Origin: a virus
Lineage: Duplodnaviria; Caudoviricetes
Virus record (IMG/VR): IMGVR_UViG_3300012663_001722
Coordinates: 22,278-86,277 of that record
Length of the DNA stretch: 64,000 bases
Reading direction: 5' to 3' (one strand)
Positions within the stretch are counted from its first letter, which is position 1, and every line of letters begins with the position of its first letter. Of this stretch, positions 14,399 through 59,574 are shown one piece after another. The translations under genes were made by a program, and so were the position numbers. Below the pieces are notes generated by a model, which ran no database searches, was not told where the DNA came from, and saw only the letters and a list, made by a program, of their open reading frames with translations.

Positions 14399-14935
14399 TT
14401 ACCAGAAAAATGATCCTCCACCCTTAAGACCTAATTCTTTTGCATAATAAGGCAATCGACATGCCCAATAACCAGGCTTTGTTTTATCTTTCTTTGTTGA
14501 ACATTTATGTCTTGCCGCAAAACTAGCTCGAGCCTCTGGATCATTTATTTTTGCATTCAGACCAGTTGTATCACCAAACTCTACCTTAATTACATTACCT
14601 TTATCATTCTTAACAAAGACATAAAACTTTTTGCTGCCGCCTCGTTTAGGCTTATTAAGTTCAGGTTGAGTTTCTTCTATTAAAGGATGATCAAGCGGAA
14701 CGATCTCTCCTTCATAGAGAGCAGATTCACCAATGTCACTTTCAAGTATCATCTTTTCAAAGCTAGTTGGTGCTAGTTCATCTATGCGAGTCTTAGCATA
14801 TCTAAATAGTTCATAATAGCTTTCACTATGTGGCCTAAAAATATTTTCAGCAATAGGTATATTATTCTCAATATGAAAATCAAAGGCCTTTTCAATATCA
14901 ACACGTTCACTTAAAATATTTGCTAATTTTTTCAT
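14399..14935 (-). CDS. conserved phage protein (KKFYVFVKN...ARHKC...YWAC C-terminal domain)
   Basis: Start moved to MKKLANILSE (14935) because the upstream part of the track ORF lies inside the hairpin element. Confidence 0.75.
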   Translation of the reverse strand: MKKLANILSERVDIEKAFDFHIENNIPIAENIFRPHSESYYELFRYAKTRIDELAPTSFEKMILESDIGESALYEGEIVPLDHPLIEETQPELNKPKRGGSKKFYVFVKNDKGNVIKVEFGDTTGLNAKINDPEARASFAARHKCSTKKDKTKPGYWACRLPYYAKELGLKGGGSFFW

Positions 14936-14941
14936 TTTTTG

Positions 14942-15007
14942 GTTTACAAACTTTCTAGTATATGTATAATAGGTGCTTAGCACCTCCCGCTGAATTTATG
15001 AAGCGGG
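14942..15007 (+). ncRNA. counter-oriented promoter plus double-hairpin element, copy 1 (candidate sRNA or origin)
   Basis: GTTTAC-N17-TATAAT, then AGGTGC-TTA-GCACCT and CCCGCT-GAATTTATGA-AGCGGG. Confidence 0.55.
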
Positions 15008-15077
15008 TAATAATATTTAAATGTTCTTATAATTTATCTATATTTGTTAATAAAACATTAAGATCTTAGTAATCATA

Positions 15078-16352
15078 TTAAAGTATGCTATTCCAATTTA
15101 AGGAGCCATGAACATTGCCGCCGCCAGTGCTTAAGTGGCGGACTCCTAATGTAAATGTATCAGAAGCACCACCGATCGTTCTGCCTAATTGATGTTCAAA
15201 TGCATATTGTAAATTTTCATTAATTATTTCACGAGATCGATTGCTACTTTCAAATAGTCCACTTTCTTCAACAATCCCGCCTGTCATTGAAGTTGCAGTT
15301 ATGTTATATTCTAACACTGATCCACTACCAGTATGTGTTGTCCAACTTCCTCCAGTAATATCGGCGTTTCGTATAAGAGCATATTCATAAATGATTCCAT
15401 TTCCAGTGCCAAGAATATGAACTTGTGAAGGTAAAACAATAGCATCAGTATATCCACTTTTCAAACGAAGTGATACAACTGGAGCATATCCGCCGCTTGC
15501 GACTGAAGTACTTGCAATAGCTGTTGTTCTTGTTGCAGCCCACTGTTTCGTAATAGGTTCATAACCGCCTTCAGATATTACAGTAGAACAAATTTGCTTC
15601 ATTGTAGTTGAGCCGCTTGTAGCTGCTAAGTTTTCAATTTCATAGCGAATAGGCAAGCAAGCTGTTGACATATATGTCGTTGTTCGGGCGTTATCATTGT
15701 GGAATGTATGAGCTACAATTAAGTGGCCATCTACAACAAATCCGCAGCGAACATCGCCTACACCCAACCATTCAATATCCATCCAAAATATTTGAGCTTT
15801 AGTAAAATCAATTGTTCGGCCACTATAACCTGTACCGTCAAACTTATCACCATTCCATTCGCTACGTGACGCAGTTAGCGTAGTATTAAGGCTACGACTG
15901 CGAATCTTTAATGAAACGGTTTCACCATCAGCTTCAAGAAATATACCATCATCATTTCCAAAATAGCCAATGCGTTGGCGAACATTTGCCTTAAGAGTTC
16001 CTAAACAAAAACTAGCAAGAATTAGCAAACTTTTTCCAGGCTGATACGACATTACTCGACGTGTTTCGCGAACAACTTTGCTGCCTGACTCATTCGTTAC
16101 AGCTAGCGCCATTACGTTTTCAGTTGCCACGTGAGTAGCAGTTCCATTTGTTGTGGTTAGCGTGTCCCACTTGCCATTATCGCCATAACGATATTGACTA
16201 TCAAACAATGTGAATGGTGCACTTGTTCGTAGTCGACCAAATGCGTCAGTTAACGATCCGCCCGGTGTTAACTGATCGGCCAACATATGAACTTCATATC
16301 TCGCTCCGGCGTTCGTTAATTTCTTAGATTCTGATAAGTATTGAGTAGGCAT
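15078..16352 (-). CDS. conserved phage protein, possibly virion-associated (DAFGRLRTS..FTLFD family)
   Basis: 424-aa beta-rich ORF rich in Thr and Gly, in the late region. Confidence 0.75.
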   Translation of the reverse strand: MPTQYLSESKKLTNAGARYEVHMLADQLTPGGSLTDAFGRLRTSAPFTLFDSQYRYGDNGKWDTLTTTNGTATHVATENVMALAVTNESGSKVVRETRRVMSYQPGKSLLILASFCLGTLKANVRQRIGYFGNDDGIFLEADGETVSLKIRSRSLNTTLTASRSEWNGDKFDGTGYSGRTIDFTKAQIFWMDIEWLGVGDVRCGFVVDGHLIVAHTFHNDNARTTTYMSTACLPIRYEIENLAATSGSTTMKQICSTVISEGGYEPITKQWAATRTTAIASTSVASGGYAPVVSLRLKSGYTDAIVLPSQVHILGTGNGIIYEYALIRNADITGGSWTTHTGSGSVLEYNITATSMTGGIVEESGLFESSNRSREIINENLQYAFEHQLGRTIGGASDTFTLGVRHLSTGGGNVHGSLNWNSIL

Positions 16353-16370
16353 ATTTTATTTAGAGTTATT

Positions 16371-17099
16371 TTAAATGCATTTGCGAATTATATCGGCTTC
16401 TTCGTCACGTCGACGTAACAAACCATCAAGACCTTTACCAACCCATAATCTTTTCATTGCAATTATTTGATCTGCAATATATTTATAAAGTTCTTTGTTA
16501 ATTGGTTTAGTTGCAATAGCGTCTTTTATATTTTTCATTTCAACTCGAGATGCACCCTTTGTGCTGCCACCTCGATTAAAGACAATTGATACAAGAGCTC
16601 CAAAGGCATCAGGATGTAGCTTATCAGCTCCAGGAAAACTCGTCTTGGTTAGTTTAATAAAACGAGGCAATGTTCTCTCATTAAATACTTCCTGAGCGCT
16701 GCTCCATGGAATGTTAATATCCTTTAGACCTGAGATTTTTCCACTAGCAGCTTTGCTCTTTAGACCAATACAACCATGCAAACGAGCAAAAACCTTTGCA
16801 TCAAGTTTGTTTTTCCAGTCACGAGCAAATCCTTCTGCTGTATTATAGCCTAGATCATAGCCAATGCCGATTGTAACACCGCTCTGGCCGCCTGGATAGG
16901 TTGGTCTTTGCAATGCTTTTTTATAATAGCTTTCTCCACCTGTCTCATGTTTAATTATGAGATCATATGATTTCTTAGTTAAGCCATGTGTTTTATCAAG
17001 TCTTTTTTCAAGTATCTCGGGAGATACACTAGTTGGGGTTTCAATAATCTTTTTAGTAAAGATCTTGCCAATTGTGTTTAATATTAATTGTTTAATCAT
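16371..17099 (-). CDS. lysozyme-like muramidase (pesticin/T4-lysozyme-like), candidate endolysin
   Basis: HETGG...YPGGQSGVTIGIGYDLG...ALVSIVFNRG...GLLRRRDEEA. Confidence 0.8.
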   Translation of the reverse strand: MIKQLILNTIGKIFTKKIIETPTSVSPEILEKRLDKTHGLTKKSYDLIIKHETGGESYYKKALQRPTYPGGQSGVTIGIGYDLGYNTAEGFARDWKNKLDAKVFARLHGCIGLKSKAASGKISGLKDINIPWSSAQEVFNERTLPRFIKLTKTSFPGADKLHPDAFGALVSIVFNRGGSTKGASRVEMKNIKDAIATKPINKELYKYIADQIIAMKRLWVGKGLDGLLRRRDEEADIIRKCI

Positions 17100-17503
17100 A
17101 ATCCTCTGTTTGTATTTTGCACAGCACTTAGTGCGTTTCTATTATTAATTACACGACGTAAGATTTCCTGAGTTACGTCAGATATTTTTTGTAGCATCGG
17201 CTTTTGTACACCACCTGTCGAACCATTCTCAAGGCTATTCATCGCTTTTATGAAAGCAGCAATTTGATTTGCCGGCACACCGAGAGTTGGTAAAATTTTT
17301 GATAGCTTAAATTTATCACTAGCTAGATCTTCACTAACTCGTTGGCTAAATGATAGAGCTAGCAAGCCCTTTACGAATTTTGCGGCAGCGGTTGCATCTG
17401 TTTTTGACAGATATTCTCCGTTTGCCGCAAGATCTAGTAGCTGCAGCGCCTGATCAGCAGATATGCCAAGTGCGACGCTTAAGCGATCAATTGATTCAGT
17501 TAC
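17096..17503 (-). CDS. start-less ORF; probable -1 frameshift extension of the upstream protein
   Basis: The frame is open from the A9 run (17504-17512) to 17096 (VTESIDRLSVALGIS...NRGL*). There is no ATG before the track's TTG at 17365. Confidence 0.55.
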   Translation of the reverse strand, partial: VTESIDRLSVALGISADQALQLLDLAANGEYLSKTDATAAAKFVKGLLALSFSQRVSEDLASDKFKLSKILPTLGVPANQIAAFIKAMNSLENGSTGGVQKPMLQKISDVTQEILRRVINNRNALSAVQNTNRGL

Positions 17504-19047
17504 TTTTTTTTTAACTCGATCGATTCCTTTAATCCGCCTGCTGCTTTATATGCAGTATAATCAGCTACGCTCTTTTTAATATATTCCTTTGCGTTGCCTT
17601 TAATTACAACACTATATGGAGCTTTTTGATAATCAGTTTGAGTCAACAGCGTTTTACTCTCAGGATGCACATACATGCTAATCACTTTGCGATCAGTTGG
17701 ATTCCAATGCTTCGCAAAATCGGTATCTTTTACTGATTTAAAACCAGCATTAACAAGATCTGGGTGCAGTGCTTGGTTCTTTGCAGAACCTGATGCAACT
17801 GAATTATCTTCTACCATAGCTTTAATATAGTTAGAAACATCTTTGATATTAGCAAATGTTTTGTGTTGTTTGGCATCTGCTACGAAATAACTATCACCAT
17901 CTAATTCACTTGTTACACCAATTACTGTATCAGCATATTTGCCAGCACGCATCTGTATAGCGTAAAGACCTAGCAGCTTACCATCTTTGTTATACTTTTT
18001 GAAAAATGGGTGATCTTTTGGTACAACAGTAAAGTCATGTTTTTTCAAGAGTTCGATAAATGCAAGAGCATGAGGTGTTTTATCGGCTTCAGCTAAAATT
18101 TGGCCTAGTGATTTACTAACGCTTTCATTTTTATTTTTATCAAAAAGATTTGTCAGTGCAGCAACAAAGCCCTTTATGTCTTTATAACGTCCAACGTTGT
18201 CAAGACGTTTTGATTTTGCATCAGTATCATGAATAAAGAAACTAGCTTTTTCACCAATCATAAACATGCCAATTAGAATGTTTTTGTGTTTTTTGCTGGT
18301 ATAGAGATGCAGCAGATCTTTAGCTTTATCAACTTTTGATACTGCATCAAATAATTTAGTTCCTGCTTTTACACGATTAAATTGATGTTTAGCAATCATT
18401 TTAATTACGCTCTTTGGCATAACATAATCTTTTAATCCCGCCTCTTCCGGCTCAGCAATTTGTTTTGCTTCGTTTAATTCATATTGACCCTTTTTGAGTG
18501 TAAGATTAATTACATCTCCCTTTTTATCGCTCTTTTTATATTGGACATTGATGCGACCATCTGGAAACTTGTGGAAGATATCAACCTTTTTGCCATTCAA
18601 TCTAGATCCGATGAAAGTGACAGTTGCAGTGCCCATTGAATGTGATCCAGCTGCTTCATCCATACGTTTACCAAAGGTGCTATGAACAAGATCATCGAGC
18701 TTTTTGTGAAACTCTGTTTCATCATCTTTGCTGATGCCAGGATCTTCTTCTCCATCAGAAGCTTCTAATTGCTCCTCTTCCTCTTCGTCATCTTTGCATG
18801 TATCGCAACAAGCATCAAAACCATATGCTTCAAGAGCACAATCGCATGCTGATTTAATGTGCTCACGAGTTGAACTAATGCATTCCATCATGCTTTCATC
18901 CATTTCAGAGTCAACGTCTTGTAGACCTTCAATTAGATTATTGCACATTGTGATGATCTCATCAAGACATGCAAAGGCATCTTCACATGTGTTTTCTACA
19001 TCTTCTTTTAACTGTGTTGGTTTTAATATTGCTGCTAAGCTTTTCAT
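17500..19047 (-). CDS. large multi-segment late protein (putative internal head protein)
   Basis: Start moved to MKSLAAILK (AATAAATA-N5-ATG); Cys/acidic N-terminal part; repeated (L/I/V)xE boundaries; ends ...IELKKK*. Confidence 0.75.
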   Translation of the reverse strand: MKSLAAILKPTQLKEDVENTCEDAFACLDEIITMCNNLIEGLQDVDSEMDESMMECISSTREHIKSACDCALEAYGFDACCDTCKDDEEEEEQLEASDGEEDPGISKDDETEFHKKLDDLVHSTFGKRMDEAAGSHSMGTATVTFIGSRLNGKKVDIFHKFPDGRINVQYKKSDKKGDVINLTLKKGQYELNEAKQIAEPEEAGLKDYVMPKSVIKMIAKHQFNRVKAGTKLFDAVSKVDKAKDLLHLYTSKKHKNILIGMFMIGEKASFFIHDTDAKSKRLDNVGRYKDIKGFVAALTNLFDKNKNESVSKSLGQILAEADKTPHALAFIELLKKHDFTVVPKDHPFFKKYNKDGKLLGLYAIQMRAGKYADTVIGVTSELDGDSYFVADAKQHKTFANIKDVSNYIKAMVEDNSVASGSAKNQALHPDLVNAGFKSVKDTDFAKHWNPTDRKVISMYVHPESKTLLTQTDYQKAPYSVVIKGNAKEYIKKSVADYTAYKAAGGLKESIELKKK

Positions 19048-19066
19048 AGTTCTATTTATTGTTTTG

Positions 19067-20578
19067 TTATTTTCCAAATTCATGACCTGCGACTCTACGC
19101 ATTTCTGCACTAAATTGCTCAAAACTTGGTTTTGTTTTGAAATATTTGATTGTAAGATTATCCTTTTCTTTGCCTTTAATTCTCCAAAGATAGCCTGCAG
19201 CTTTGCGCTCAGGATCTGTTGTTTTTACGACACGTCTCTCATAGCCAGCTTCCCAAGTTTCCTCAGTCAGTGATGACTCAGTCATTGCTTTATGCTTTTT
19301 CCAAAGATCAGCATCAGCTGTTGTTCTTGTTTTACCTCCAGTAATAAAGCTATTTACTCGAGCATAACCCCATTGTTGTTGATTTGCACCTGGTCGATGA
19401 CCAGTTTTCCATGCAGCAAGACCACGATTATAAACTTGTTTTAATATACTAAAACTAATACCACTAGCATCAGATTTCTTTTTTAATGCAGAGTCAGCAT
19501 CCTCTTCAAGATCCGAAAACTTATCATGATATGCCTTTGTGTATTTGCTAGTTTTAGTTTGCTTTGAATCTCCAGGTGCAGGCTTATATGCATCTGGATC
19601 ATCGTCACTCATTTTCGTTTGTTTAGCGAACTGAGCTTTTCTTTTTTGTGCAGTTGATTTACTTAATCCAGTATAATATTTTTCAGATTCAACAAAACGT
19701 TTTGCGTCATCTAATGTTTGACCCGGAGTATCGCGCTTATAAATGTTTGCTGCGCGAGTTGTGCCATATTCAAGAACCTTTGATTCATCAAGATCTATCT
19801 GATTTAAGAAGAACTTTTTAATTTCTCCGCTTGGACTCTTTGCGCTAACAAAATTACTATGACGTTCAACAATCACATAGCTTTGGGATTTTGCTACAAT
19901 CTTATCACCTACATTAAAAATATTTCCAGAGATATAAGCTTCACGAACATCATCAATTTCTTTGTTTTGTTCTTTAACATTCAAACCATCTCTTACTGCA
20001 CTATATAATGCACTTGCATCTTTAAAGCCCTTTGGCATGCCAAGCATAAACAAATCAAAATCACCAGCAATTGCTGCAGCTTTTAGTTTGCTGCTGCTCA
20101 TGCCGTCGACGCCCTCACTATCAGGATCTCTTTCACCAGCACTCTTTACTTCAATAGTTTTAAAATCATAGTGACCATGTGCACCGGTTTTTCCATTATA
20201 GTCAGTTAGTAGTTTTTTGAAATCGGCAATGCGATCTCCACCAACAACAAATACAAATCGATTATAGCCTTCGTCATAAGCAGAGGCCGCAATTTGCAAT
20301 GCATTTTTTATATTTTTATTTGAGACAAAATGACGAGCAAACTCTGGAAACATTTTTCTCAAAAACTTAATCTTGCTATCATAGTCAAGAGGATTCTTTT
20401 TCTTATCCTGACTTTGACTACTATAGATTAAATAGTCTGCATTATCAGAGTCAGCTAAACTCTTAAGTCTTTTAAATAGTTTTTCGTGACCAATTGTTGG
20501 AGGATTAAAACGACCGAAGGTTGCATAGATTGCTCTATTTCCTGCAGCTTCATTTTTATATTCTTTGAAACTCTTCAT
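19067..20578 (-). CDS. HIGH-family nucleotidyltransferase (cytidylyltransferase-like) with extra C-terminal phage domains
   Basis: TFGRFNPPTIGHEKL, VVGGDR, SAGERD...GMSSSK; C-terminal DDDPDAYKPAPGD and ILKQVYNRGLAAW..GHRPG segments. Confidence 0.85.
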   Translation of the reverse strand: MKSFKEYKNEAAGNRAIYATFGRFNPPTIGHEKLFKRLKSLADSDNADYLIYSSQSQDKKKNPLDYDSKIKFLRKMFPEFARHFVSNKNIKNALQIAASAYDEGYNRFVFVVGGDRIADFKKLLTDYNGKTGAHGHYDFKTIEVKSAGERDPDSEGVDGMSSSKLKAAAIAGDFDLFMLGMPKGFKDASALYSAVRDGLNVKEQNKEIDDVREAYISGNIFNVGDKIVAKSQSYVIVERHSNFVSAKSPSGEIKKFFLNQIDLDESKVLEYGTTRAANIYKRDTPGQTLDDAKRFVESEKYYTGLSKSTAQKRKAQFAKQTKMSDDDPDAYKPAPGDSKQTKTSKYTKAYHDKFSDLEEDADSALKKKSDASGISFSILKQVYNRGLAAWKTGHRPGANQQQWGYARVNSFITGGKTRTTADADLWKKHKAMTESSLTEETWEAGYERRVVKTTDPERKAAGYLWRIKGKEKDNLTIKYFKTKPSFEQFSAEMRRVAGHEFGK

Positions 20579-20581
20579 ATG

Positions 20582-22138: not shown

Positions 22139-22683
22139 ATGTATTGTGCAGAGATTTTATATTTCTCGTTAAATTGTTTAGTTTGAGCAGTATGTTTTAA
22201 TGAACTATATGGTATATTATAATCTTTAAGGGCATCCTTTAAACACTCATATTCTTTTCCATTAACAATAGCTCTTTTTGCTTTAGGATTTTTTGAACCA
22301 TTTTTATCATGTTTACCTTGTTTTTTACAACGTTCTTTATATTCTTCTTCTGTTAAATTATCCCAATAGTTTTTTACTACATTTGACATACTAGTATCAT
22401 CTTTAAATCCTGTATCACCTCCTTGACCACCAATATGTAAATTATAATAATCTGTATCTTCTACTGCATTTTCTAATTCAATATAATATTTTTCCATTTT
22501 TCTTAGATCTTCTTCACACTCGGTTGAGTATAATATCTCCTTTTTAAAATTAGAACTTCCATATTTCTTAATAGCTTGTCGTAGTAATATACCAGAACCT
22601 AAATAATATTTTTTATTTCCATTGCTTTTTCCGATATATTTTTTATCGTTTATTAAATTAGTTGTTTTATAAATGTAACCCAT
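22135..22683 (-). mobile_element. freestanding GIY-YIG homing endonuclease (Seg-like)
   Basis: MGYIYKTTNLINDKKYIGK...YLGSG...YYNL..GG.GG; own late promoter TATAAATA-N5-ATG; NUMOD-like C-terminus. Confidence 0.9.
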
Positions 22684-22785: not shown

Positions 22786-22795
22786 TTTTACTTTA

Positions 22796-26131: not shown

Positions 26132-26153
26132 ATTTCTTATTTATACTTTTTAT

Positions 26154-44053: not shown

Positions 44054-45135
44054 AGACTATCAAGGGCTTGGGCTTCAACGTAAAGTTCTTGCAATAATGT
44101 TTTAATTCGATCTCTATCAAGATCTGTTTCAACAGCATCTACATAGTTATTAAGTAGACTAACTGTGTCTGTTGCAACAGTAGATTCATCGATCGTTACA
44201 TTGCTTGCATTATATTCATCAAAATTTTCAACGGTCTTTACTTCAAATGGATTTGCAGCTTGTATTGCATCAACGAATTTATCAAAGAGATATGGATTCT
44301 TTTTAACTCGCACAACAAGCTTAACATAAGTTGATGTTAGTGCACTAAAATCATATTCAGCAAGATCAGCATAGATGTTATCATCTGCATCGCTATCATC
44401 ATAAACAAGCTTATTGAAAAGAGTAATTGGATTGCGAATTGCATGCAACTCTCGAGTCTCACTGTCAAGAATGTGAAAATATTTTGGATCATCACAATCT
44501 GCCCACGTTAATTCATAGGGTGTGCCAAGATAATGTATATTGCCTTTGTCACTCTTTGTGTGATAGTGTCCACTTAACACACTCTCATAGCGAGAGAAAA
44601 GTTCTGCATTCATGCCATGACTCGCAGCTGGCATGCCTTTCATCATTTCAAATCCAGCTAGCTCAAGATGTGCACCAATTATTGGAGCTTGGGCAGTTTG
44701 TATAAACTCAATGCTGCTAGCATAATTCTCTGGGTTAATCCATGGCAGCAAGGCAATCTTTAAGCCATCATAATCCAAAATTGTTGGATTCATGTGTAGC
44801 TTAATAACATCGGCATGCAGCATGACAATCTCTTGCAAACTACAAACATCGTTCGTACTCTTGTAATAGACATCATGATTACCTGGAATGATATTCATAG
44901 TCATGCCATATTCACGAAGTTTTTCAATGAAATTGGCTTTGTTTGCAGCCAATGCTTTGATATTCGTAAATTTACGATGATCATAATAATCACCTAGATG
45001 CAGGATTTCAGTGATGCCTTGTTTTTTACATTCAGGAAAAAAGACTTCATTATAGAATCTCTTTTCATTATTGATAAAGACATCACTGCCGTTTTTAATA
45101 CCACTATGGGTATCCGTGATAATTGCGATTTTCAT
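44050..45135 (-). CDS. 47: SbcD/Mre11-like recombination nuclease subunit gp47
   Basis: ITDTH.G, LGDYYD, GNHD, GAHLEL, SGHYH. Confidence 0.96.
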   Translation of the reverse strand: MKIAIITDTHSGIKNGSDVFINNEKRFYNEVFFPECKKQGITEILHLGDYYDHRKFTNIKALAANKANFIEKLREYGMTMNIIPGNHDVYYKSTNDVCSLQEIVMLHADVIKLHMNPTILDYDGLKIALLPWINPENYASSIEFIQTAQAPIIGAHLELAGFEMMKGMPAASHGMNAELFSRYESVLSGHYHTKSDKGNIHYLGTPYELTWADCDDPKYFHILDSETRELHAIRNPITLFNKLVYDDSDADDNIYADLAEYDFSALTSTYVKLVVRVKKNPYLFDKFVDAIQAANPFEVKTVENFDEYNASNVTIDESTVATDTVSLLNNYVDAVETDLDRDRIKTLLQELYVEAQALDSL

Positions 45136-45776
45136 AGGGCTGCAAAAAAGTCACTCAATGGACCAAGTTCTGGAGTTTTTTTGGAGGGTCGACCTCTTTT
45201 CTTTTTAGTAGGTAATGGCTCATGATCCTTAACACTGCAAAGATCATCTTTATAAAATGCTCCATCAAGTTTATGACGAGCGCGTTCAATCATGCTTTCT
45301 CCGATCTGACCGCTGTCATCACCAAAGTCAGCAAATGAGTCAAGACTTGAACCTTCAATGAGTTTTTGTTTAATCTCCGTTTGTTTTTTCTCTTTTTCAA
45401 TGCGTCTTAAAAAGGCATAATAGCTGATTTGTGTAAAATAGCTAAATGCATTTGGTGTGCCTGTTCGAGTGGGAGCATCAATATTAAAGTTATTGACAAC
45501 CTTAATACAGTTTTCTACTGCATCCATAACCATATCATCGCGATAGCTATAGTTCATGAAGTTTGGACTTCGTGATAACCCACTAGCGATCTGATAAATC
45601 CCCAATGCAATATAGTCTGTAACTACAGGATCCTCCAAGCCAGTTGCTCGGGCAGTTTTAACACTTTGAACATATGAGGCCAAAGCCAAACTAAGTTCTT
45701 TATTGTTAATGTAATCAGATCCTTCTTTTCTTTTACGTGTACTTTTTACTTTTTTTGGTTGATCTTCTTCAATCAT
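45132..45776 (-). CDS. 55: late sigma factor gp55
   Basis: YINNKE, NF.NYSYRDDMV.DAVENC, NAFSYFTQI.YYAFLRRI.KEKKQ; start moved to 45776. Confidence 0.95.
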   Translation of the reverse strand: MIEEDQPKKVKSTRKRKEGSDYINNKELSLALASYVQSVKTARATGLEDPVVTDYIALGIYQIASGLSRSPNFMNYSYRDDMVMDAVENCIKVVNNFNIDAPTRTGTPNAFSYFTQISYYAFLRRIEKEKKQTEIKQKLIEGSSLDSFADFGDDSGQIGESMIERARHKLDGAFYKDDLCSVKDHEPLPTKKKRGRPSKKTPELGPLSDFFAAL

Positions 45777-45783: not shown

Positions 45784-45812
45784 AGTATACCACAAAACAA
45801 AAGTTTGTAAAC
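45784..45812 (-). promoter_or_regulatory. sigma70-type promoter for gp55 (leaderless)
   Basis: GTTTAC-N17-TATACT-N7-ATG. Confidence 0.8.
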
Positions 45813-45834
45813 AATTATTTTTATGAATTTTTTG

Positions 45835-45901
45835 GTTTACAAACAATCAGATTCATGTATAATAGGTGCCATGCACCTTCGGCTGAATGAAATGAAGCCG
45901 A
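45835..45901 (+). ncRNA. counter-oriented promoter plus double-hairpin element, copy 2
   Basis: GTTTAC-N17-TATAAT, then AGGTGC-CAT-GCACCT and TCGGCT-GAATGAAATGA-AGCCGA. Confidence 0.55.
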
Positions 45902-45990
45902 TAGATGATGCTGATTGTTTGCTCTTAAAATATCTATAAGAATAATTCTTATAACCAATAAAGCTTTTCTTTAAGAAAGCCGAATTAGGT

Positions 45991-47475
45991 TTAGATCTTA
46001 ACTGTATATATTTTGTAATTAAAGCCTTCTTTGTCATAGATGCCAACACGCTCTGCTCCATGCTTTAAACTAAAGTTTTTCTTTTTCTTCCATGAGAAGT
46101 TATCGCTAATATCATAGACTGTAGTAGCTTGACCATTATCGCTCAATCGCAAGCCTCGGCCAATACTTTGTAGGATTTTAATTTGACTTTTAGTGGGAGC
46201 AGCAAAAATAATATTATGTAGATTACGTATATTAATGCCTGTACTAAATGTAGCACTACTTGCAACAATAATTGCATTTGATTCGCTCTCTACTTCTCCA
46301 CGTATGCTTTCGCGAACATCAGTATCTGTTTCGCCACTGACATAATAGATCTTGCGATCTGGCTCTGCTGCAACCAACGCGGCATGCAATGGCTTGCCGT
46401 GTTTTACAACATAGTTGAAAATTACAAGTGTATTGCCTTTTAAGCCTCTAGCTAGATTAACAATAAACCTATTGCGAGCAGAGTGGGAAATAATGACATC
46501 AATCTCACTGGCATAATCCAGTTTGCTTACTGCCTTTTTAACTTCATCATCATAATCAAGCACAATGCAATGTATAGTCAACTCTGCAAGTGTTTTGCTC
46601 TCCATAAGAGCCTTTGTTGTTGTGACTTTAAATATTGGTCCAAAATGTCCAACAAGAACTCGCTCATTGCATTTGCTGCCATCAAGTGTGCCCGTTGTGC
46701 CAATGCGATAGCTTGCATTGGTTAGCGTATTCATAATGCTATTGAGACTCTTTGCTTTAAACTGATGTGCTTCATCTCCAACAATCATGCCATATTTTTT
46801 GAACCAATTTTCAGAACATGTAATTGCGCTCTGCCATGTTGTGATGGTTACGCGAGTGCCGGCAACTTCTTTTTCTTTGCCGCTATAGATGCGATGCACT
46901 AATTTTTCAGAATCAAATTCAGAGTCATGCGTACTATAGTCAGAGAAATCACTGGCGAGCTGTTCAACAAGACTAGTAGTTGGCACAACAACAAGTGCTT
47001 TTTCACTTTCATGATCAATATACCAACGAAGCAGCATATAGATGATCAAGCTCTTACCGCTGCCAGTCGGACTTAAGACAAGTGTTCTTCCGCTAGTCAA
47101 GCTTTGTACAACTGCTTCAATTTGATAATCATGAGGAGTTATGTTATTTCCTCGAGCAGACAGATTTAATTTTGAAATATAGTCAATCACCTCTTGTCGA
47201 GAAGGCAATGGTGCTCGCAAACTATCATCATATTCGATTTTATAATTACGCTCTTTTGCAAATTTTGCAACCTCTCCAATTAAACCATAAGGCAGTGTAT
47301 GCGATCTACTATCATACAAATATATTTTTCCATTCCATAATTTATTACGATATGCTGGAATAAACTTATAACCTTCAACTAAAAAGCTGAAGTGTTCGTG
47401 CAATTCCATCGATACACCACTATCATCAACATTAAGATGCACTTTAGTTTCATCAACTTTGTGTATTTTTATCAC
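45991..47475 (-). CDS. uvsW: SF2 RNA-DNA/DNA helicase UvsW
   Basis: SPTGSGKS, VVPTTSLV, GDEAH, GTTGTL, FSTGINI..LHN, QSIGRGLR. Confidence 0.96.
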   Translation of the reverse strand: MIKIHKVDETKVHLNVDDSGVSMELHEHFSFLVEGYKFIPAYRNKLWNGKIYLYDSRSHTLPYGLIGEVAKFAKERNYKIEYDDSLRAPLPSRQEVIDYISKLNLSARGNNITPHDYQIEAVVQSLTSGRTLVLSPTGSGKSLIIYMLLRWYIDHESEKALVVVPTTSLVEQLASDFSDYSTHDSEFDSEKLVHRIYSGKEKEVAGTRVTITTWQSAITCSENWFKKYGMIVGDEAHQFKAKSLNSIMNTLTNASYRIGTTGTLDGSKCNERVLVGHFGPIFKVTTTKALMESKTLAELTIHCIVLDYDDEVKKAVSKLDYASEIDVIISHSARNRFIVNLARGLKGNTLVIFNYVVKHGKPLHAALVAAEPDRKIYYVSGETDTDVRESIRGEVESESNAIIVASSATFSTGINIRNLHNIIFAAPTKSQIKILQSIGRGLRLSDNGQATTVYDISDNFSWKKKKNFSLKHGAERVGIYDKEGFNYKIYTVKI

Positions 47476-52777: not shown

Positions 52778-53296
52778 TTAATATTGGGTTTTATTCCAAG
52801 AATCATATTCATTAATATATTTTTTAATTTCTTCTTGGCTATTACCATATATCACGATGTCGTCATCATATACGCCAAGGTATATCATATATGGCACTTT
52901 TGCTGCTACCGCTTTAGGTGGTAATTTTCCATCTTGATCTTTGTTTTTAAATTTATTAAGATCATCTTGCCAAGTTGAATCATCAAACTGACCTTTTGTA
53001 CCTACAACTGTATTAGTATGATTACCTGGAGCATATGTTTGAATAAGTTTCAAATTATTACGATCCATATAATCAAGTCTAAATTTCCAAGGGCATTTTA
53101 CCGCTTCATTTAAAATACTTTCGATCGGACTGCTGACATTAGTAAGACCTTCGTTGAAAATTTTATTCGCAACTTCAATCTTTTGTTGTTCAACAGCAAT
53201 AGTGATTTTATCTTTTATTATTTGATCAAGACGAAGATTAGCAATCTCCATTTTATTGTCTTGTACGTCTTGTAATAGATTTTTAATTTCGTTCAT
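52778..53296 (-). CDS. 67: gp67-like prohead core protein with a C-terminal extension
   Basis: Lies between genes 20 and 21; helical N-terminal ~50 aa (...K...A...QK.EVA..IF); extra ~105 aa after ILNE. Confidence 0.55.
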   Translation of the reverse strand: MNEIKNLLQDVQDNKMEIANLRLDQIIKDKITIAVEQQKIEVANKIFNEGLTNVSSPIESILNEAVKCPWKFRLDYMDRNNLKLIQTYAPGNHTNTVVGTKGQFDDSTWQDDLNKFKNKDQDGKLPPKAVAAKVPYMIYLGVYDDDIVIYGNSQEEIKKYINEYDSWNKTQY

Positions 53297-53318
53297 ACTT
53301 TTTATTTATATTTATAAT

Positions 53319-54932
53319 TTATGCTTCTTCAGGTGGAGCTTCATCTGGTTCTTCTTCTCCACTATCTGGAACAGAGCCATCATCTTCTGATCCACCTTCA
53401 CCAGGTGCTCCAAAATCCATGCCGCTATCACTTCCAAAGTCATCAGCGGGTGGTTCTTCTTTTTTACCTCCAGCTTTTGCTTCAGCATTTTCGCTATCCA
53501 TGCGCTCAATATCTTCATCGCTTTGATTGAGAATATTACTGCGTACCCATTTTTCACTATAATATTTTCCAATGTATTGCTCAATACTGCTCAATACTTC
53601 AAGACGATCTTTGATGATCTCAAACTCTTTGATCTCACTAAAATAGTTGTCTTCAATAAAGTCAACACTAATATTCTCACGAATAATTTTCCATTCTTCA
53701 GCTGTACAAACATTTTTTAGAATACATTGTACACGCAGTGCATTAATAAAGAGCAAGCTAAATTTGCGGCGCAATTTATTAATGAATTTTTGAAACTTAA
53801 CCTCTTCGCGAGTAATCTCAGAGACACGACCAATATTATAGGCATTGTCACTATCAAGACGACCAGCCGGTACGTTAAGCGCTCTATAGAGTTTTTTCTG
53901 GAAAAAGATAATATCTTCAATCTGACCTAGGTTTTCTCCACCTGGCAATGTTTGAATCTCTGTACCTCTGCCACCTTCACGACGTGGCAACCAGAAATCC
54001 TCCATGATGTTCATGCTCTTACGATCTTCTCGAACTTCACCGCTGCTAGCATCATATACAAGCTTATTTTTATATTTGCCCATGATGCCTTGCACATATT
54101 CTTCAGCTTTGCCCTTTGGCAAGTTACCTACGTCAATATAAAAGATACGACGTTCTGGTGCACGAGAGATACGATAGATAACCAAGCTATCCTCCATGAT
54201 ACGCAACTGATTCACAAGCTTAATGCACTTATGCAAATAGCTAATTGAAAACGCGCCGCTTTCATCAAGTATGCCGCTTGGCACATAGCATATACTATCA
54301 GGATGGATTTTTAACGCATCGCTGCTAGTATGAATATCTTCAGTATAGAGATAATATTCATCACTAATAAACTTAACACGAGCGCCAGTTTCTTTGTTTG
54401 TTCGAGTCGTTACCTCTTTAACCTTTTTCATTTTAAGAGGATCAATAAGACGCATCTCTTGAACACCCTTTTCAATTTTTTCATTATCAACAACAAGGTG
54501 ATAATAGAGTTTGCCATCAATATACCAACGGCGGAAAATATCATGGCCATCAAAGTTGAAGTTCAACATCTTAACGATGTTATCAAACTCATCGCGTAGC
54601 CTTCTTTTAATTTCATCTGGATAGTCAAGACTATCAAGTGTTAGTGTAACAGGTGTTTTATCATTGTCACTAATAATTGATGCATTAACAATATCGCTAA
54701 CAGCAAGGTCGCACTCAGGCTGAGCTGCTGCCATACGATATTTTAGGATAAGACCTTTTTCATCGTTGACGTTAATGTCATCCATATTCAGCACATGCCC
54801 ATAATAGGCACTAGTCATGCTGCCATTGATTTCAATGGTGCCGTCAGTTGAAATTGGGGTGGAAAAGCCTTCGATTGTTTTTGACTTTCCAGTGTCTACA
54901 GCTTTACCTATTTCGAATCCAAAAATCTTCAT
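53319..54932 (-). CDS. 20: portal protein gp20
   Basis: FRRWYIDG, EDSLVIYRISRAPERRIFYIDVGNLPKGKAEEY, EDFWLPRREGGRGTEI.TLPGG, ITREEVKF. Confidence 0.98.
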   Translation of the reverse strand: MKIFGFEIGKAVDTGKSKTIEGFSTPISTDGTIEINGSMTSAYYGHVLNMDDINVNDEKGLILKYRMAAAQPECDLAVSDIVNASIISDNDKTPVTLTLDSLDYPDEIKRRLRDEFDNIVKMLNFNFDGHDIFRRWYIDGKLYYHLVVDNEKIEKGVQEMRLIDPLKMKKVKEVTTRTNKETGARVKFISDEYYLYTEDIHTSSDALKIHPDSICYVPSGILDESGAFSISYLHKCIKLVNQLRIMEDSLVIYRISRAPERRIFYIDVGNLPKGKAEEYVQGIMGKYKNKLVYDASSGEVREDRKSMNIMEDFWLPRREGGRGTEIQTLPGGENLGQIEDIIFFQKKLYRALNVPAGRLDSDNAYNIGRVSEITREEVKFQKFINKLRRKFSLLFINALRVQCILKNVCTAEEWKIIRENISVDFIEDNYFSEIKEFEIIKDRLEVLSSIEQYIGKYYSEKWVRSNILNQSDEDIERMDSENAEAKAGGKKEEPPADDFGSDSGMDFGAPGEGGSEDDGSVPDSGEEEPDEAPPEEA

Positions 54933-54945
54933 AAACTATATATAC

Positions 54946-54966
54946 GCGGGGGTTTTTCACCCCCGC
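54946..54966 (-). terminator. hairpin between gp19 and gp20
   Basis: GCGGGGGT-N5-ACCCCCGC; no clear U tract. Confidence 0.45.
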
Positions 54967-54982
54967 TAAAATACATTACTGA

Positions 54983-55543
54983 TTAGTCAGTAATAACTTC
55001 GTTACCAACTCTTTCCCAGTATTGATATGCAAATTCAACTTCGAAACTTTCGACTTCGTCAGTTTCATAGCTGAGCTCAATTGCATTAACATTAACAGGA
55101 AATGCGTCGACAAAACGATATTGTGCAATACCAATATCTTCACTGCGGCCGCTCTTGTCAAGTTGAACTACTTGCAAATCGCGCATATAATTCAATGGTG
55201 CACCAACTGCAGCATCAGCCGCAAAGTTACGACTGTGAGAGTTAATGCTATTCATCCATTTTTCAAATGCGTTACGCAAATCAAAACTTGTGTCGTTATA
55301 GACTGTAACAGTCCAGTTGTCTTCAAATGTACGTTCACCTGCAACCTTTAAATTACGACCACGATATGGTACGTCAATCTTTGTGATTGTGCTAGCAGGA
55401 ATACTAGCAGCTTTAATCATAAAGCTTGCTCTGCGGGTTGTGTTTGTATTTCCAGCTATACTTGGAAAATCAACTACACACTTAAATAGGTTTGGTCTTG
55501 CGCCTCCGGCAAAATTACTTTTAAATTGAGAAATATTACTCAT
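54983..55543 (-). CDS. 19: tail tube protein gp19
   Basis: GGARPNLF, VPYRGR.LKVAG.RTFE.WTVTV.ND, FPVNV..IELSY, F.VEF.YQYW. Confidence 0.95.
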   Translation of the reverse strand: MSNISQFKSNFAGGARPNLFKCVVDFPSIAGNTNTTRRASFMIKAASIPASTITKIDVPYRGRNLKVAGERTFEDNWTVTVYNDTSFDLRNAFEKWMNSINSHSRNFAADAAVGAPLNYMRDLQVVQLDKSGRSEDIGIAQYRFVDAFPVNVNAIELSYETDEVESFEVEFAYQYWERVGNEVITD

Positions 55544-55567
55544 ATTATTTTATTCTTTCTTTATTAT

Positions 55568-57385
55568 TTATAGTATGTTTGTGCCAATAACTTCTTCGAA
55601 CGATACACCTGTGCGAATAGCTACAAAGTTTAGAGTGATATAGTTGATGCTCTTAGATGGCTTGATAAAGATCGTACCAACAAATCTGTTATTATCAATA
55701 ACTTCAGGAGTATTGTTACTTTCGTCACAAACTATTCTAAAGTCAATGATACCTCTACGACCTTGAACTTCGCGAAGATATGGCTCAACCGCATTTCTAA
55801 ATGCTGCACGAGTAAATTCGTCGTTAAGTTCAAATAGCAAGAATTTACTTGCAGTAGCAATTGCTTTTTCAATTGTAATAAAGAGACGGCGAACATTGAT
55901 GCGGTCAAACGCACCAGGTTTAGCTTGTGCAGTTTTATCACCAAAGAGAATAATGCCATTGCCTGGGCTGCTAATAAGTGGATTAATACGAGCAGTATAC
56001 AAATCATCGCGATCAGCTTGTTTTGGATTATAAGCAAGTTTTGTTACACCCAATAGATTGCCGCGATTAAAGCCCGCAGGACTAAACCAAGGATCAGCTA
56101 AACGATCTGTCTTAGCGCAAAGACCAGCCATATGTCCGCAAGCAGGAATCCATGCAAATGCGTCACGATAGCGATTATAAACATAAACTGGAGTGCTATC
56201 AAACACAACATAACTACTTGATGCATTGGAAAGACCAGAGAACTTGGCTTTAACATTAGTAAGCTTTGTAGAATCAACTGAAACAGTTGAAATTGATAAT
56301 GGCGCACTAATAAAAGCTAAGCAGTCTTTTCGTGTTGTATCTGCAAGCTCAATAAGCTTATCATCAACTACTTTTTGTGTAGTATTATCTGCAAAATTAT
56401 GTGCAAAAACAAAGTTAATATCAATCGCTTCTGTATTTTCAAATTGTCCTAGAGCTGTAACTAAATCAGCTTCGCCAAAACTTGATGCATCAGTTCCACC
56501 TTCAAATTGATATTCTCCGCCAAATAGTTCAGCTGTCCAGTAATTTGCATATTCCGCATTGGTTAAGCCACTCTTATCACCGCTAAAGTTTACACCCCAA
56601 ACATAGCTTGAGCTATTGTTGAGTACATCTGCCCAATAGATCGATTGGCCTGAAGAATTTTTGGCACCAGTAAAATAAGAAAGACCTTGATAAACTTCAA
56701 GAATTTCACCAGCAGAGCCAGTAATAAGACCAAGTCTATCATAAACAATAATTGTTACTTCATCTTCTTCTACTGTTTTGTTCAATAAAGCTGCCTTAGC
56801 AACGCTCCAATCCGTAGATGTTGGATCATATGTTTTTGCAGATTTAACAGCTAATGGTATTTCATTAGCGGCAGTATTAGAATCAATAGCAACAACACCA
56901 ATAGAATTACCAATAGCACCAGTATAGCGTGCAACAAATCTTATACGCGCTGCACGTAGTGCAGTTTGACTATTTGAAAGGTCACCAATATTATTAATAT
57001 TAAGACCTGGACCAATATATGTACCATTTGAACTATAACCATAACCATAACCATCTACATTATAACCATAACCATAACCAGCTGTAAAGTCATTTCCGCT
57101 ATGAGCATTTGTGCTGCTATCATCTGCACGAACAACACGTAATGTGTTGCTATACTTCAAATAGCTTGCAGCAGTTAAGAAGCTTCTTTCGAGATCATCA
57201 ACCTTTGTGGTTGGTGCTCCGAATAAAAGAGCTAGGTCGGTTTCAGAACCAACGTTAACTGGTGTGTTAACTGGTCCCCATCTAAAAAACCCTGCAAAAC
57301 CACCAACGCTTGTTGCTAGTGCGGGTATGATATTTGTCAAATCTGTTTCTTTGACTTCTACTCCAGGTGATATTAAAAATCCCAT
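55568..57385 (-). CDS. 18: tail sheath protein gp18
   Basis: SPGVEVKETDLT, FRWGPV, WFSPAGFNRG, FDRINVRRLFI.IEKAI, FELNDEFTR, IKPSKSINYITLNFVA. Confidence 0.97.
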   Translation of the reverse strand: MGFLISPGVEVKETDLTNIIPALATSVGGFAGFFRWGPVNTPVNVGSETDLALLFGAPTTKVDDLERSFLTAASYLKYSNTLRVVRADDSSTNAHSGNDFTAGYGYGYNVDGYGYGYSSNGTYIGPGLNINNIGDLSNSQTALRAARIRFVARYTGAIGNSIGVVAIDSNTAANEIPLAVKSAKTYDPTSTDWSVAKAALLNKTVEEDEVTIIVYDRLGLITGSAGEILEVYQGLSYFTGAKNSSGQSIYWADVLNNSSSYVWGVNFSGDKSGLTNAEYANYWTAELFGGEYQFEGGTDASSFGEADLVTALGQFENTEAIDINFVFAHNFADNTTQKVVDDKLIELADTTRKDCLAFISAPLSISTVSVDSTKLTNVKAKFSGLSNASSSYVVFDSTPVYVYNRYRDAFAWIPACGHMAGLCAKTDRLADPWFSPAGFNRGNLLGVTKLAYNPKQADRDDLYTARINPLISSPGNGIILFGDKTAQAKPGAFDRINVRRLFITIEKAIATASKFLLFELNDEFTRAAFRNAVEPYLREVQGRRGIIDFRIVCDESNNTPEVIDNNRFVGTIFIKPSKSINYITLNFVAIRTGVSFEEVIGTNIL

Positions 57386-57468
57386 ATTTGTTTCCTTTCA
57401 GTTGTTGTTAATAAGTTTATTGCATACTAAGTTTATGACTCACAAGCTTATTTATAAATTATACACTT

Positions 57469-59046
57469 TCAAAGTGTATGCCACTCTCTTGCATTATCTA
57501 TTAGTTGGTCATATGCACTGCCCATTGATGTTGTCGTTGAAACATAACCAAACGGTGGCAAATCCTCTTCCATCTCAAGCATCTTTTCACTATATAGTAA
57601 TTCTCGTAGGTCAGTATCACTCATGCCATTAAATACATCTGTACTCACAAACCAAGAGAAGAGTACGAAATTCATAACACTATCATCATGTGCACCTTCA
57701 CTTGCGGCAAAGCTATCACCCTTTGGTACAAAATTTGCGAGCTCACTGATTGTATAGGCATCAACAATGTGTAGTTTATTGCCTTCTAACAAATCCTTTA
57801 GATTGCTGCAACCAACGCGTTTAACCTTTTTTGTCATGACAACGCCAATGCCGTTACTCTTAACAGCACTTGTTGTAAACATATTTTCATATTCATAGTC
57901 ATAATAAACAGCGTTGCACACAACCTGACCAACATCATTGTTTTCAATAATAACAAGTGCCTGATTATATTGTGTTGCTGCTCGAACAATAAGATTAGGA
58001 AATAGCAAGGGTGAAATAGTATTGTTGCGATAGGTACAAACCTGCTTAAACGGTTTTGATGATATGTCAATTACTGAGAAGGTACTATAATCCTGTCCAC
58101 GACCTTTACTAACATCAGCTACAAGTATATAGGCATGATCTTCTTGCGGCGCCTCATAATAAGCAATATCATGCTGCATATTAATTGGACTTTGTGCTTG
58201 CATGCCAAGCAAGCATGTGCTATTTACTAGTGTATCTGCACTGCCGACAAATTCGCAACTAAACTCTTGTCGAAACTGTGCTTCGCTTGTATTTGCAATT
58301 GTATTAGCTCGCCAATCGTCATCTCGACCGGGCACATCCCGCCAATTAATAGTAAATGGTTTAAATTCATTGCTGTTACTAATTGCACCTTGCCATAGTT
58401 TATAAAACATATTGCCGACACCATTTGGTGTACTTGTAATAATAACCTTTGTATCACTACCGGAGCTAATTACAGGATATGTACTTGTATAAAATTCTTC
58501 GGCTTTATGTACAAAGGCAAACTCATCAAGAAAAATAATGTTTGCACTTATGCCCCGAATACTGCTGCTGCTTGTTGCAGCGGCAATAATCTCACTATTA
58601 TGTGCAAATACAATATTACCTTTATTAAGCACTCTTACACCAGGCTGCAAAAAGAATGGCAGATTTTCAAGCATAAGAGTAAAACGACTTAACATCTCGC
58701 GGGCAATTGCTCCTTTGTTTGCGAGTACTGCAACCCTTTTATCTGCGTTGAAAACCATATAGTGTAATAGCCATGCAACACTAGTCACACTCTTACCACT
58801 TTGTCTTGGAGCCAAAACAATACTAAATCGATTAGCACTATAGTGTTTTACAAGATTGCTTTGATAGCCACGTAATTCAAATGGCACGAGCCCATGATCC
58901 AGACTAATGACCTTTACATAATTCTTACAAAAATATTCGACATCATCACGACAGCGAATATATTCACTCACTTCATGTGCTGTAAAATTTTGTTGTACCC
59001 CATCTGCTTTTATTTTGGGGTTTCCATTATATGAATTATTTTGCAT
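57469..59046 (-). CDS. 17: terminase large subunit gp17
   Basis: PRQSGKS, IFLDEFAFV, ITSTPNG, FRQEF.CEF, ADVSKGRGQDYS, HDDSVM. Confidence 0.97.
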   Translation of the reverse strand: MQNNSYNGNPKIKADGVQQNFTAHEVSEYIRCRDDVEYFCKNYVKVISLDHGLVPFELRGYQSNLVKHYSANRFSIVLAPRQSGKSVTSVAWLLHYMVFNADKRVAVLANKGAIAREMLSRFTLMLENLPFFLQPGVRVLNKGNIVFAHNSEIIAAATSSSSIRGISANIIFLDEFAFVHKAEEFYTSTYPVISSGSDTKVIITSTPNGVGNMFYKLWQGAISNSNEFKPFTINWRDVPGRDDDWRANTIANTSEAQFRQEFSCEFVGSADTLVNSTCLLGMQAQSPINMQHDIAYYEAPQEDHAYILVADVSKGRGQDYSTFSVIDISSKPFKQVCTYRNNTISPLLFPNLIVRAATQYNQALVIIENNDVGQVVCNAVYYDYEYENMFTTSAVKSNGIGVVMTKKVKRVGCSNLKDLLEGNKLHIVDAYTISELANFVPKGDSFAASEGAHDDSVMNFVLFSWFVSTDVFNGMSDTDLRELLYSEKMLEMEEDLPPFGYVSTTTSMGSAYDQLIDNAREWHTL

Positions 59047-59052
59047 TTTTTT

Positions 59053-59119
59053 GTTTACAAACTTTCAACATTGTGTATAATAGGTGCCATGCACCTTCGG
59101 CTGAATGAAATGAAGACGA
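59053..59119 (+). ncRNA. counter-oriented promoter plus double-hairpin element, copy 3
   Basis: GTTTAC-N17-TATAAT, then AGGTGC-CAT-GCACCT and TCGGCT-GAATGAAATGA-AGACGA (one mismatch). Confidence 0.55.
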
Positions 59120-59133
59120 TAGCTGCAGCTTAT

Positions 59134-59574
59134 CTATGCCTGTTGATTTTGATTACTTAAGAATTTTTGAAGTTCAGTAGTTGTACCAACAAAAATTGCA
59201 TTGTTTGTTGTACTATTTGCCTCATTAGGCTTATTGCCTTTGATCAAAGTTTTACGCTGCTTTTGAAGATCAAGCAGCTGCTGATTCATTTCAGCGCTTT
59301 GTTTGATCATATTGCCAAGCACCTCATATGCTCTAGGGTGTTCAGCATCAGTAGCAAGTGCATGTAAGTTACTTATAACCTCATCGCTTGTCTCGAGAAG
59401 TTTTTTCATGCGTACTCGAGCATATTCAAAATCATCTTGCGCATCACTTATTAGTGCTTCATCACTTGGCTCAGGCGTTAAAATCTTTGGAGGAGCTGGA
59501 GCTGGCATCATAATCTCAAGCTGACCAGTCAAGTTTTTCATTAACTCACTTTTATGGGATTGGTCGGTTTTCAT
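59134..59574 (-). CDS. 16: terminase small subunit gp16
   Basis: DDFEYAR......L..........A...EHPRAYEV...MIK...TNNAIFVGTT.ELQK. Confidence 0.9.
   Translation of the reverse strand: MKTDQSHKSELMKNLTGQLEIMMPAPAPPKILTPEPSDEALISDAQDDFEYARVRMKKLLETSDEVISNLHALATDAEHPRAYEVLGNMIKQSAEMNQQLLDLQKQRKTLIKGNKPNEANSTTNNAIFVGTTTELQKFLSNQNQQA

Follow-up and report, generated by a model that had tools for sequence, protein, structure and literature searches.

Backward early-type promoter cassettes with stem-loops at core-gene junctions of a Kyanoviridae-type T4-like phage

We analyzed a window of 64,000 nucleotides (positions 22,278 to 86,277 of the IMG/VR record IMGVR_UViG_3300012663_001722; coordinates are those of the window unless stated otherwise) and found in it a cassette of about 80 bp, present in three copies on the plus strand and opposed to all genes, in which a promoter is followed by two abutting stem-loops. 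The source is a viral contig of 86 kb with an estimated completeness of 48%. Its genes are on the minus strand and its core order is that of the cyanophage-type T4-like phages (terS, terL, sheath and so on, then uvsW, gp55 and gp47/46), the closest named relatives being Kyanoviridae: phage C48C1, Pelagibacter phage HTVC008M, Methylophilales phage Melnitz and marine cyanophages. Our preferred reading, to which we give a probability of roughly 40%, is that the cassette is an inverted early-promoter module acting early in infection, either through antisense or counter-transcription or as a boundary element.

Using a 35-base search pattern that spans both promoter boxes (-35 and -10) and the first hairpin arm, we obtained exact plus-strand matches at 14942-14976, 45835-45869 and 59053-59087 (copies 1, 2 and 3), with a chance expectation of 0, and no further match in the full 86-kb contig. 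The three promoter-plus-hairpin sites that an original prediction, made from the letters of the window, had placed on the plus strand are therefore real. All three copies contain the motif GTTTACAAAC-N11-TGTATAAT followed by AGGTGC-N3-GCACCT and by a covarying 6-bp hairpin. The promoter is made up of a T run, GTTTACA, a 17-bp spacer and TATAAT, which is the consensus of host sigma70-type (early) promoters, and the three copies are the sole plus-strand consensus promoters of the contig. With a looser search, the count of early promoters was three for the plus strand and 11 for the minus strand, most of the latter lying in the early-gene region preceding the window. The sequence also agrees with the prediction that copies 1 and 3 have 6 nt between their -35 box and the minus-strand ATG, and that copy 2 stands back-to-back with the gp55 promoter, which we located at 45812-45784.

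We then aligned the three window copies and four distinct orthologues taken from other viral contigs. In these seven sequences the T run, GTTTACAAAC and TGTATAAT are invariant, while the 11-base core of the spacer varies freely. Because the hexamers and the T run are kept and the spacer core is not, the backward promoters look selected as promoters.

Regarding the stem-loops, folding gave energies of -17.5, -16.1 and -8.9 kcal/mol for copies 1, 2 and 3, respectively, with z around -4 for copies 1 and 2. Both hairpins fold as predicted, that of copy 3 being weakened by one stem mismatch. Stem 1 (AGGTGC-N3-GCACCT) shows no variation across the seven sequences. Stem 2 occurs as CCCGCT/AGCGGG, TCGGCT/AGCCGA and CCCACT/AGTGGG, and the compensatory changes that had been proposed for it are found in three of its six pairs; overall, 98.8% of the cells are paired and no shuffle reached the observed covariation score; the independent events are few, and copies from the same genome are closer to each other than to their orthologous counterparts. 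The hairpin 2 loop has a variable apex (UGAAA, UGUAA, UUUA), whereas its outer G-A and A-G positions, as well as one A-T pair, do not change. Copy 2 has, in addition, an outer stem of 12 + 4 bp (z -5.4), whose counterpart in copy 3 measures 6 bp and differs in sequence.

To place the element in a wider context, we surveyed the DNA preceding gp55 in 47 distinct relatives, most of which share 50-60% identity with the window in this protein. A backward promoter scoring at least 11/12 was present in the uvsW-gp55 gap of 45 of them, mostly as TTTACA-17-TATAAT and back-to-back with gp55's own promoter. The same layout is found at gp55 in C48C1 and in HTVC008M, where TTGACA-17-TATAAT is followed by AGGCA-TG-TGCCT and the backward promoter occupies 80267-80295 of NC_020484.1 (minus strand). 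In the cyanophages P-SSM4 (TTGACA-17-TACACT; between PSSM4_117 and gp55) and S-ShM2 (TTGACA-17-TAAACT) we recognized by eye a promoter in the same place with a weaker -10 box. Since a backward promoter at gp55 occurs across relatives and cultured phages, copy 2 is the ancestral site, that is, this phage's version of a Kyanoviridae-type backward sigma70 promoter at gp55. The element, predicted from one stretch of DNA, is conserved at orthologous sites in relatives. In P-SSM4 (locus L470, 1130-1160) and C48C1 (locus L286, 2430-2450), only a few bases separate the -35 box of the gp55 promoter from that of the backward promoter, and the two form a palindrome, which reads TTGACAAACTTGTCAA in P-SSM4; there, the two promoters may compete for, or share, one DNA stretch.

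Copies 1 and 3 show another pattern. The junction of copy 1 is an 11-nt gap in relatives whose neighboring genes are 83-93% identical, and terS and terL abut or overlap in relatives with a TerL identity of 62% or less. Because the orthologous junctions are this tight, copies 1 and 3 are cassette insertions at the 424-aa/179-aa and terS/terL junctions.

Beside copy 1 we also noticed a remnant of the former start of the 179-aa gene, an ATG and about nine codons at 15050-15085 (minus strand), located at the right edge between the stop of the 424-aa gene and the inserted cassette. In its present form, the 179-aa gene begins at a new start and differs in about 15 N-terminal residues.

By following the terS/terL insert of one relative, we found a second cassette type that is widespread, with 24 distinct examples. 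It consists of TTTACA-17-TA(T/C)AAT and a body of 66-96 nt that ends in ACCGAAGGTTCCCGAAGGGA, usually with a T after it. This type lies backward at terS/terL in nine loci with a TerL 62-75% identical to that of the window, at gp55 in one locus, and in four loci upstream of the homologue of the window gene 16371-17099; structural-gene junctions are among its sites. Searched in 12 related loci, it gave no Rfam match at gathering score. According to these comparisons, backward promoter cassettes at core-gene junctions are a habit of this phage group, with a lineage-specific flavor that is repeated within a genome. Carriers of the second type include the loci L402, L412, L449, L450, L456, L024, L025, L321, L329, L405 and L407.

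Where the cassette transcript would begin can be estimated from the other promoters of the phage. An ATG follows the -10 box after 6-9 nt in about 8 of the 11 co-oriented early promoters and comes 4-7 nt downstream of the late boxes, both TATAAATA and the variant TATAGATA; in gp55's own promoters of the relatives, among those listed, the distance from the -10 box is 6-7 nt. With ATGs sitting so close to early and late promoter boxes, this suggests that most messages of this phage are leaderless. Calibrated by the ATG spacing after -10 boxes, the predicted start of the cassette transcript is the 7th to 9th base after TATAAT, which falls in the hairpin 1 loop. The 5' arm of this hairpin would therefore be an untranscribed discriminator, and the backward RNA would hold hairpin 2 only, which begins 7-9 nt into the predicted transcript. 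This goes against the double-hairpin RNA of the original prediction, as hairpin 2 would be left alone in the plus-strand RNA. Given the same predicted start, the outer stems include untranscribed promoter bases, so they would form only in gene-sense read-through RNA or in DNA.

The dyad that forms hairpin 1 is a recurrent feature. Among the backward promoters of the relatives, 25 of 45 carry a dyad of 4-6 bp located 0-1 nt past the -10 box, compared with 1.7 in shuffles (maximum 6) and with 0 of 38 at gp55's own promoters. We counted at least nine sequence forms (AGGTGC, AATCTT, AATCC, ATAACT, AGGC, ACAT, AATC, ATTC and GATC), a diversity that favors pairing over the operator of one protein. 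A common protein operator was considered as an explanation for the dyad and is unlikely, as the half-sites are wholly different between lineages. In L412 (7680-7700), and also in L449 and L456, all of the terS/terL type, TTGAT-TTAG-ATCAA is placed directly after the -10 box and centered on the predicted start; it matches the FNR/CRP-type consensus, TTGAT-N4-ATCAA.

The original prediction also held that each cassette faces a late-type promoter. The boxes are indeed present at all three copies, but the face-off is not kept: next to the cassette, they are absent in the relatives L006 and L014 (85-88% protein identity). This phage has a second late-promoter box, (T/C)ATAGATA, and we regard it as a real late-promoter variant because four of its eight minus-strand occurrences precede an ATG by 4-6 nt, like TATAAATA. 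Window-wide, there are 12 TATAAATA boxes on the minus strand and one on the plus strand, and both TATAAATA and NATAAATA are followed by an ATG after 4-7 nt (examples, all on the minus strand, at 26145, 22696, 35051 and 62944). As for the words TTCTTATAA and AGATCTTA, which were said to be shared by the flanks of copies 1 and 2, they do not exceed chance level, since 59 of 300 shuffles reached the flank alignment score. The coordinates of all these features are collected in Table 1.

Table 1. Positions of the cassette copies, their parts and the neighboring features in the window
Feature	Positions	Strand	Remarks
Copy 1 promoter	14936-14970	+	T run; -35 GTTTAC 14942-14947; 17-bp spacer; -10 TATAAT 14965-14970; predicted start ~14977-14979
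Copy 1 hairpin 1 (dyad)	14971-14985		AGGTGC-TTA-GCACCT, centered on predicted start
Copy 1 hairpin 2	14986-15007	+	CCCGCT / AGCGGG, loop GAATTTATGA
Copy 1 junction	14936-15077		~140 bp from 179-aa gene start to 424-aa gene stop
Copy 2 promoter	45829-45863	+	-35 45835-45840; -10 45858-45863; predicted start A 45871; ancestral site
Copy 2 hairpin 1 (dyad)	45864-45878		AGGTGC-CAT-GCACCT
Copy 2 hairpin 2	45879-45901	+	TCGGCT / AGCCGA, loop GAATGAAATGA
Copy 2 outer stem	45840-45921		Spacer CAAACAATCAG (45840-45850) pairs with CTGATTGTTTG (45911-45921), enclosing -10 box and both hairpins
Copy 3 promoter	59047-59081	+	-35 59053-59058; -10 59076-59081; predicted start A 59089
Copy 3 hairpin 1 (dyad)	59082-59096		AGGTGC-CAT-GCACCT
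Copy 3 hairpin 2	59097-59119	+	TCGGCT / AGACGA, one G-A mismatch
gp55 early promoter	45784-45812	-	GTTTAC-17-TATACT, then ATG after 7 nt; back-to-back with copy 2
Late-type box facing copy 1	15035-15042	-	TATAGATA
Late-type box facing copy 2	45931-45938	-	TATAGATA
Late-type box at copy 3	59131-59138	-	CATAGATA, overlapping terS stop codon
(T/C)ATAGATA boxes 4-6 nt before a start codon	48730, 24543, 13743, 10480	-	
179-aa gene	14399-14935	-	No assigned function; directly behind copy 1
424-aa virion structural protein gene	15078-16352	-	Predicted copy 1 transcript antisense to gene
gp55, late sigma factor gene	45132-45776	-	
UvsW-type helicase gene	45991-47475	-	Predicted copy 2 transcript antisense to gene
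terL, large terminase gene	57469-59046	-	Directly behind copy 3
terS, small terminase gene	59134-59574	-	Predicted copy 3 transcript antisense to gene

We searched for known RNA families and for terminators. Within the window, Rfam gave nothing at gathering score and nothing under permissive thresholds either, the best sub-threshold hit reaching 19 bits against a gathering score of 46, and the cassette matches no family described there. A covariance model of the cassette, run on 0.5 Mb of related loci, recovered only the three window copies; because it found nothing more, the sequence family is confined to the close clade found by the exact pattern. A metagenome scan with a loose hairpin-1 pattern returned chance matches only. 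Downstream of the three sites we saw no convincing intrinsic terminator on the plus strand (scan totals of 2 to 5 vs shuffle means of 1.8 to 2.3), the nearest weak candidate being about 200 nt downstream of copy 3, and the idea of a discrete small RNA is not sustained by this result. The hairpins themselves were discarded as an intrinsic terminator on either strand: they are not followed by a U run, and the sense strand offers only AUUAUA, the complement of the -10 box. In the literature that we searched on T4 anti-late RNA, cyanophage start-site maps and antisense early promoters, we found no account of the cassette.

The cassette has points in common with the promoter-early stem-loop (PeSL) cassettes of the T4-type phages RB49/phi1, T4/PST and KVP40/nt-1 (PMC2839356, PMC4122927). 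Both are short repeated cassettes with a consensus sigma70-type early promoter, an A/T-rich upstream tract and a stable stem-loop; both have a genome-specific flavor, and their copies mark insertions that differ between close relatives. The anatomy is nevertheless different. The stem-loop of a PeSL is placed upstream of the promoter, on the same strand, as a terminator (PMC4122927), whereas here the stem-loops start right after the -10 box. A PeSL points into an open reading frame with a Shine-Dalgarno site, while our promoters oppose all genes and are followed only by frames of 15-23 codons without coding-type conservation. Finally, PeSL copies cluster in hyperplastic regions and the present ones stand at core-gene junctions (uvsW/gp55 and terS/terL). 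PeSLs are also characterized by recombination between copies, from which mini-circles arise. Stem-loop placement and orientation thus rule out the cassette as a PeSL. The contig does contain the classical PeSL layout elsewhere: at contig positions ~4197, ~7188 and ~13869 (minus strand, before the window), co-oriented early promoters are each preceded by a T run. These promoters are of the form GTTTACTTTT...TGGTATAAT, plus one GTTTACAAAT...GCTATAAT, with a small hairpin before at least the one at ~4197, and their upstream TCATTTTTTG is common to the backward cassettes.

Our preferred reading, an early antisense or boundary control element, could work as follows. Early in infection, the host polymerase would bind the cassette and fire against the gene flow. 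This backward firing would block, or collide with, polymerases entering from the upstream gene, and its untranslated product would cover uvsW, terS and the structural gene in antisense at their 3' ends. In RNA read in the direction of the genes, the two stem-loops (together with the outer stem in copies 2 and 3) may serve as an attenuator or stabilizer, comparable to the PeSL stem-loop, and hairpin 2 would double as the 5'-proximal structure of the antisense RNA. Once sigma70-dependent initiation ends, late promoters would read through. What we infer in this scheme are the firing of the promoter, the position of the start, the interference and the timing. The arrangement is reminiscent of lambda pO, where the promoter is likewise downstream of, and opposed to, a gene; here, the predicted untranslated RNA would overlap the gene's 3' end, with distances from predicted start to stop of ~45 nt for terS, ~120 nt for uvsW and ~100 nt for the 424-aa gene. 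The product of pO, OOP, is a discrete 77-nt antisense RNA with its own terminator. In contrast, we saw no terminator behind the cassette, and the element is repeated at three junctions.

Several observations weigh against this reading. Within the contig, we found no early sense promoter upstream of copies 1 and 3 that would need blocking. In three loci, the second cassette type is co-oriented with an early gene as its 5' leader, hence orientation may not matter. Many of the relatives' dyads have only 4 A-T-rich pairs and are too weak as RNA hairpins, and the inverted copies could be neutral by-products of cassette shuffling. Besides, the evidence on the strand that folds is mixed. The G-A/A-G closure of the hairpin 2 loop, which would be favorable only on the plus strand, argues for the backward RNA, and so does the body of the second cassette type, whose orientation tracks the promoter even when it is co-oriented with genes. 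Three points favor sense RNA or DNA: promoter bases that are untranscribed given the predicted start take part in hairpin 1 and in the outer stems; in the terS/terL type of the relatives, a 9-bp helix is kept via 3-4 G-U pairs on the sense strand only; and the end motif of that cassette, read in sense, gives two CUUCGG-like loops, which are typical of T4 intercistronic RNA. Folding-strand tests on another cassette subtype of the relatives were ambiguous.

One could argue that the cassettes are R-loop replication origins, in which the backward transcript, hybridized in the A+T-rich DNA behind the cassette, would prime leading-strand synthesis, as at T4 ori(uvsY) and ori(34), until UvsW removes the RNA. 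Such T4 origins are marked by a persistent R-loop and by the ability of the fragment to replicate autonomously in infected cells. In favor of this view, a strong pre-replicative promoter serving no gene lies here within late-gene regions, where early DNA synthesis of T4 also starts (PMC3016281), and the ancestral copy adjoins uvsW, on which region T4 pre-replicative transcription also converges (PMC1524935). The cassettes may share with the T4 origins a pre-replicative promoter followed by A+T-rich DNA, placed within or next to late-gene regions and not far from uvsW/uvsY: from +30 to +110, the A+T content is 85% in copy 1 and 74% in copy 2, with a background of 62%. Copy 3, however, has 68% and runs directly into terS coding DNA; the A+T-rich tract is clear for copies 1 and 2 only. 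The T4-type origin does not hold by promoter class. T4 ori(uvsY)/oriF and ori(34)/oriG combine a MotA-dependent middle promoter (Mot box near -30) with an unwinding element and have no conserved hairpins (PMC3016281), whereas copies 1-3 have an early-type promoter, with a -35 GTTTAC at 17 bp, and no TGCTT (Mot) box. The parts conserved here are the hexamers and the stem-loops, not an unwinding tract; the predicted transcript is not G-rich, and the dyad centered on the start site is left unexplained. We consider an R-loop origin unlikely. The same can be said of the view that the cassettes were shuffled into place and do nothing of their own in this orientation: early-promoter modules of T4-type genomes recombine, like PeSLs, and would sometimes land backwards in tolerant junctions. 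Copies 1 and 3 as insertions, the lineage-specific flavor repeated in each genome and the two orientations of the second cassette type all fit with it, and shuffling is documented for PeSLs (PMC2839356, PMC4122927). Yet 45 of 47 distinct relatives, with a gp55 only 50-60% identical, preserve 11-12 of 12 consensus positions of the gp55 backward promoter, and nine loci spanning 62-75% TerL identity have the terS/terL backward cassette; this persistence at both sites indicates selection.

The small RNA of the original prediction, a structured antisense or trans-acting family with the double hairpin as its body, would account for the good folding of both hairpins, the covariation of stem 2 and the conserved hairpin 2 loop with closing positions that would be favorable on the plus strand alone. 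With the predicted start inside the loop of hairpin 1, though, the RNA would be unable to form this hairpin, its 3' end is not set by any terminator, and neither the covariance model, which adds nothing to the three copies, nor Rfam points to a family. A double-hairpin small RNA is therefore quite improbable, and probably less favored than an early antisense or boundary control element. Still less credible are leaderless micro-genes, although transcription of copies 2 and 3 is predicted to begin on the A of an ATG that opens 22-23 codons (MHLRLNEMK...), and a second in-frame ATG in the hairpin 2 loop opens 15-23 codons in all three copies. The genes of this phage are apparently leaderless, with the ATG 4-10 nt past the promoter box; the first ATG of the cassette is 8 nt past the -10 box, the same spacing as in real genes, and the peptides share a hydrophobic character and a Cys in a comparable place. 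But copy 1 lacks the first ATG, the frame of copy 3 overlaps the end of terS, and in the relatives the ATG, where present, runs into a stop after 0-6 codons. Moreover, the compensatory stem changes swap residues radically (Arg/Pro; Pro/Arg/Trp/Thr), so it would be the structure and not the peptide that is conserved. For these radical changes and the missing ATG of copy 1, a coding role of the small frames was dropped as the principal explanation. Least probable of all, in our view, is a promoter-proximal antitermination RNA in the manner of HK022 put or lambda nut, which would let the untranslated antisense transcript run far. Known elements of this kind lie inside the transcript just after an early promoter, put being two stem-loops and nut a boxA plus a boxB. 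A structured RNA directly behind an early promoter, the purine-rich GAA of the hairpin 2 loop and the GAA-loop hairpin that ends the second cassette type, also found as an early-gene 5' leader, are in line with it. The predicted cassette RNA, in contrast, would contain one hairpin only, shows no boxA-like element, and the element is much smaller than put.

What this case adds to the backward promoters of the group is a three-copy family with covariation, the terS/terL site and the argument on the start site. A broader view, rather speculative at present, is that Kyanoviridae-type T4-like phages use backward promoters throughout the family as a control device, either as R-loop origins or as a sigma70-dependent roadblock and antisense gate that would lift itself at late transcription. 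These phages are not known to have MotA or AsiA. In either case, the dyad would be a new promoter feature, a discriminator complementary to approximately +3 to +9 and kept, despite sequence turnover, in at least nine forms, and being centered on the start site it poses a question for promoter mechanics. Cultured carriers exist in HTVC008M and probably P-SSM4. Cyanophage- and pelagiphage-type T4-like phages are among the most abundant viruses in water, and a conserved gene-less promoter at gp55, repeatedly copied to terS/terL, would offer a handle on how they time early and late expression without the T4 middle mode, and on where their replication starts.

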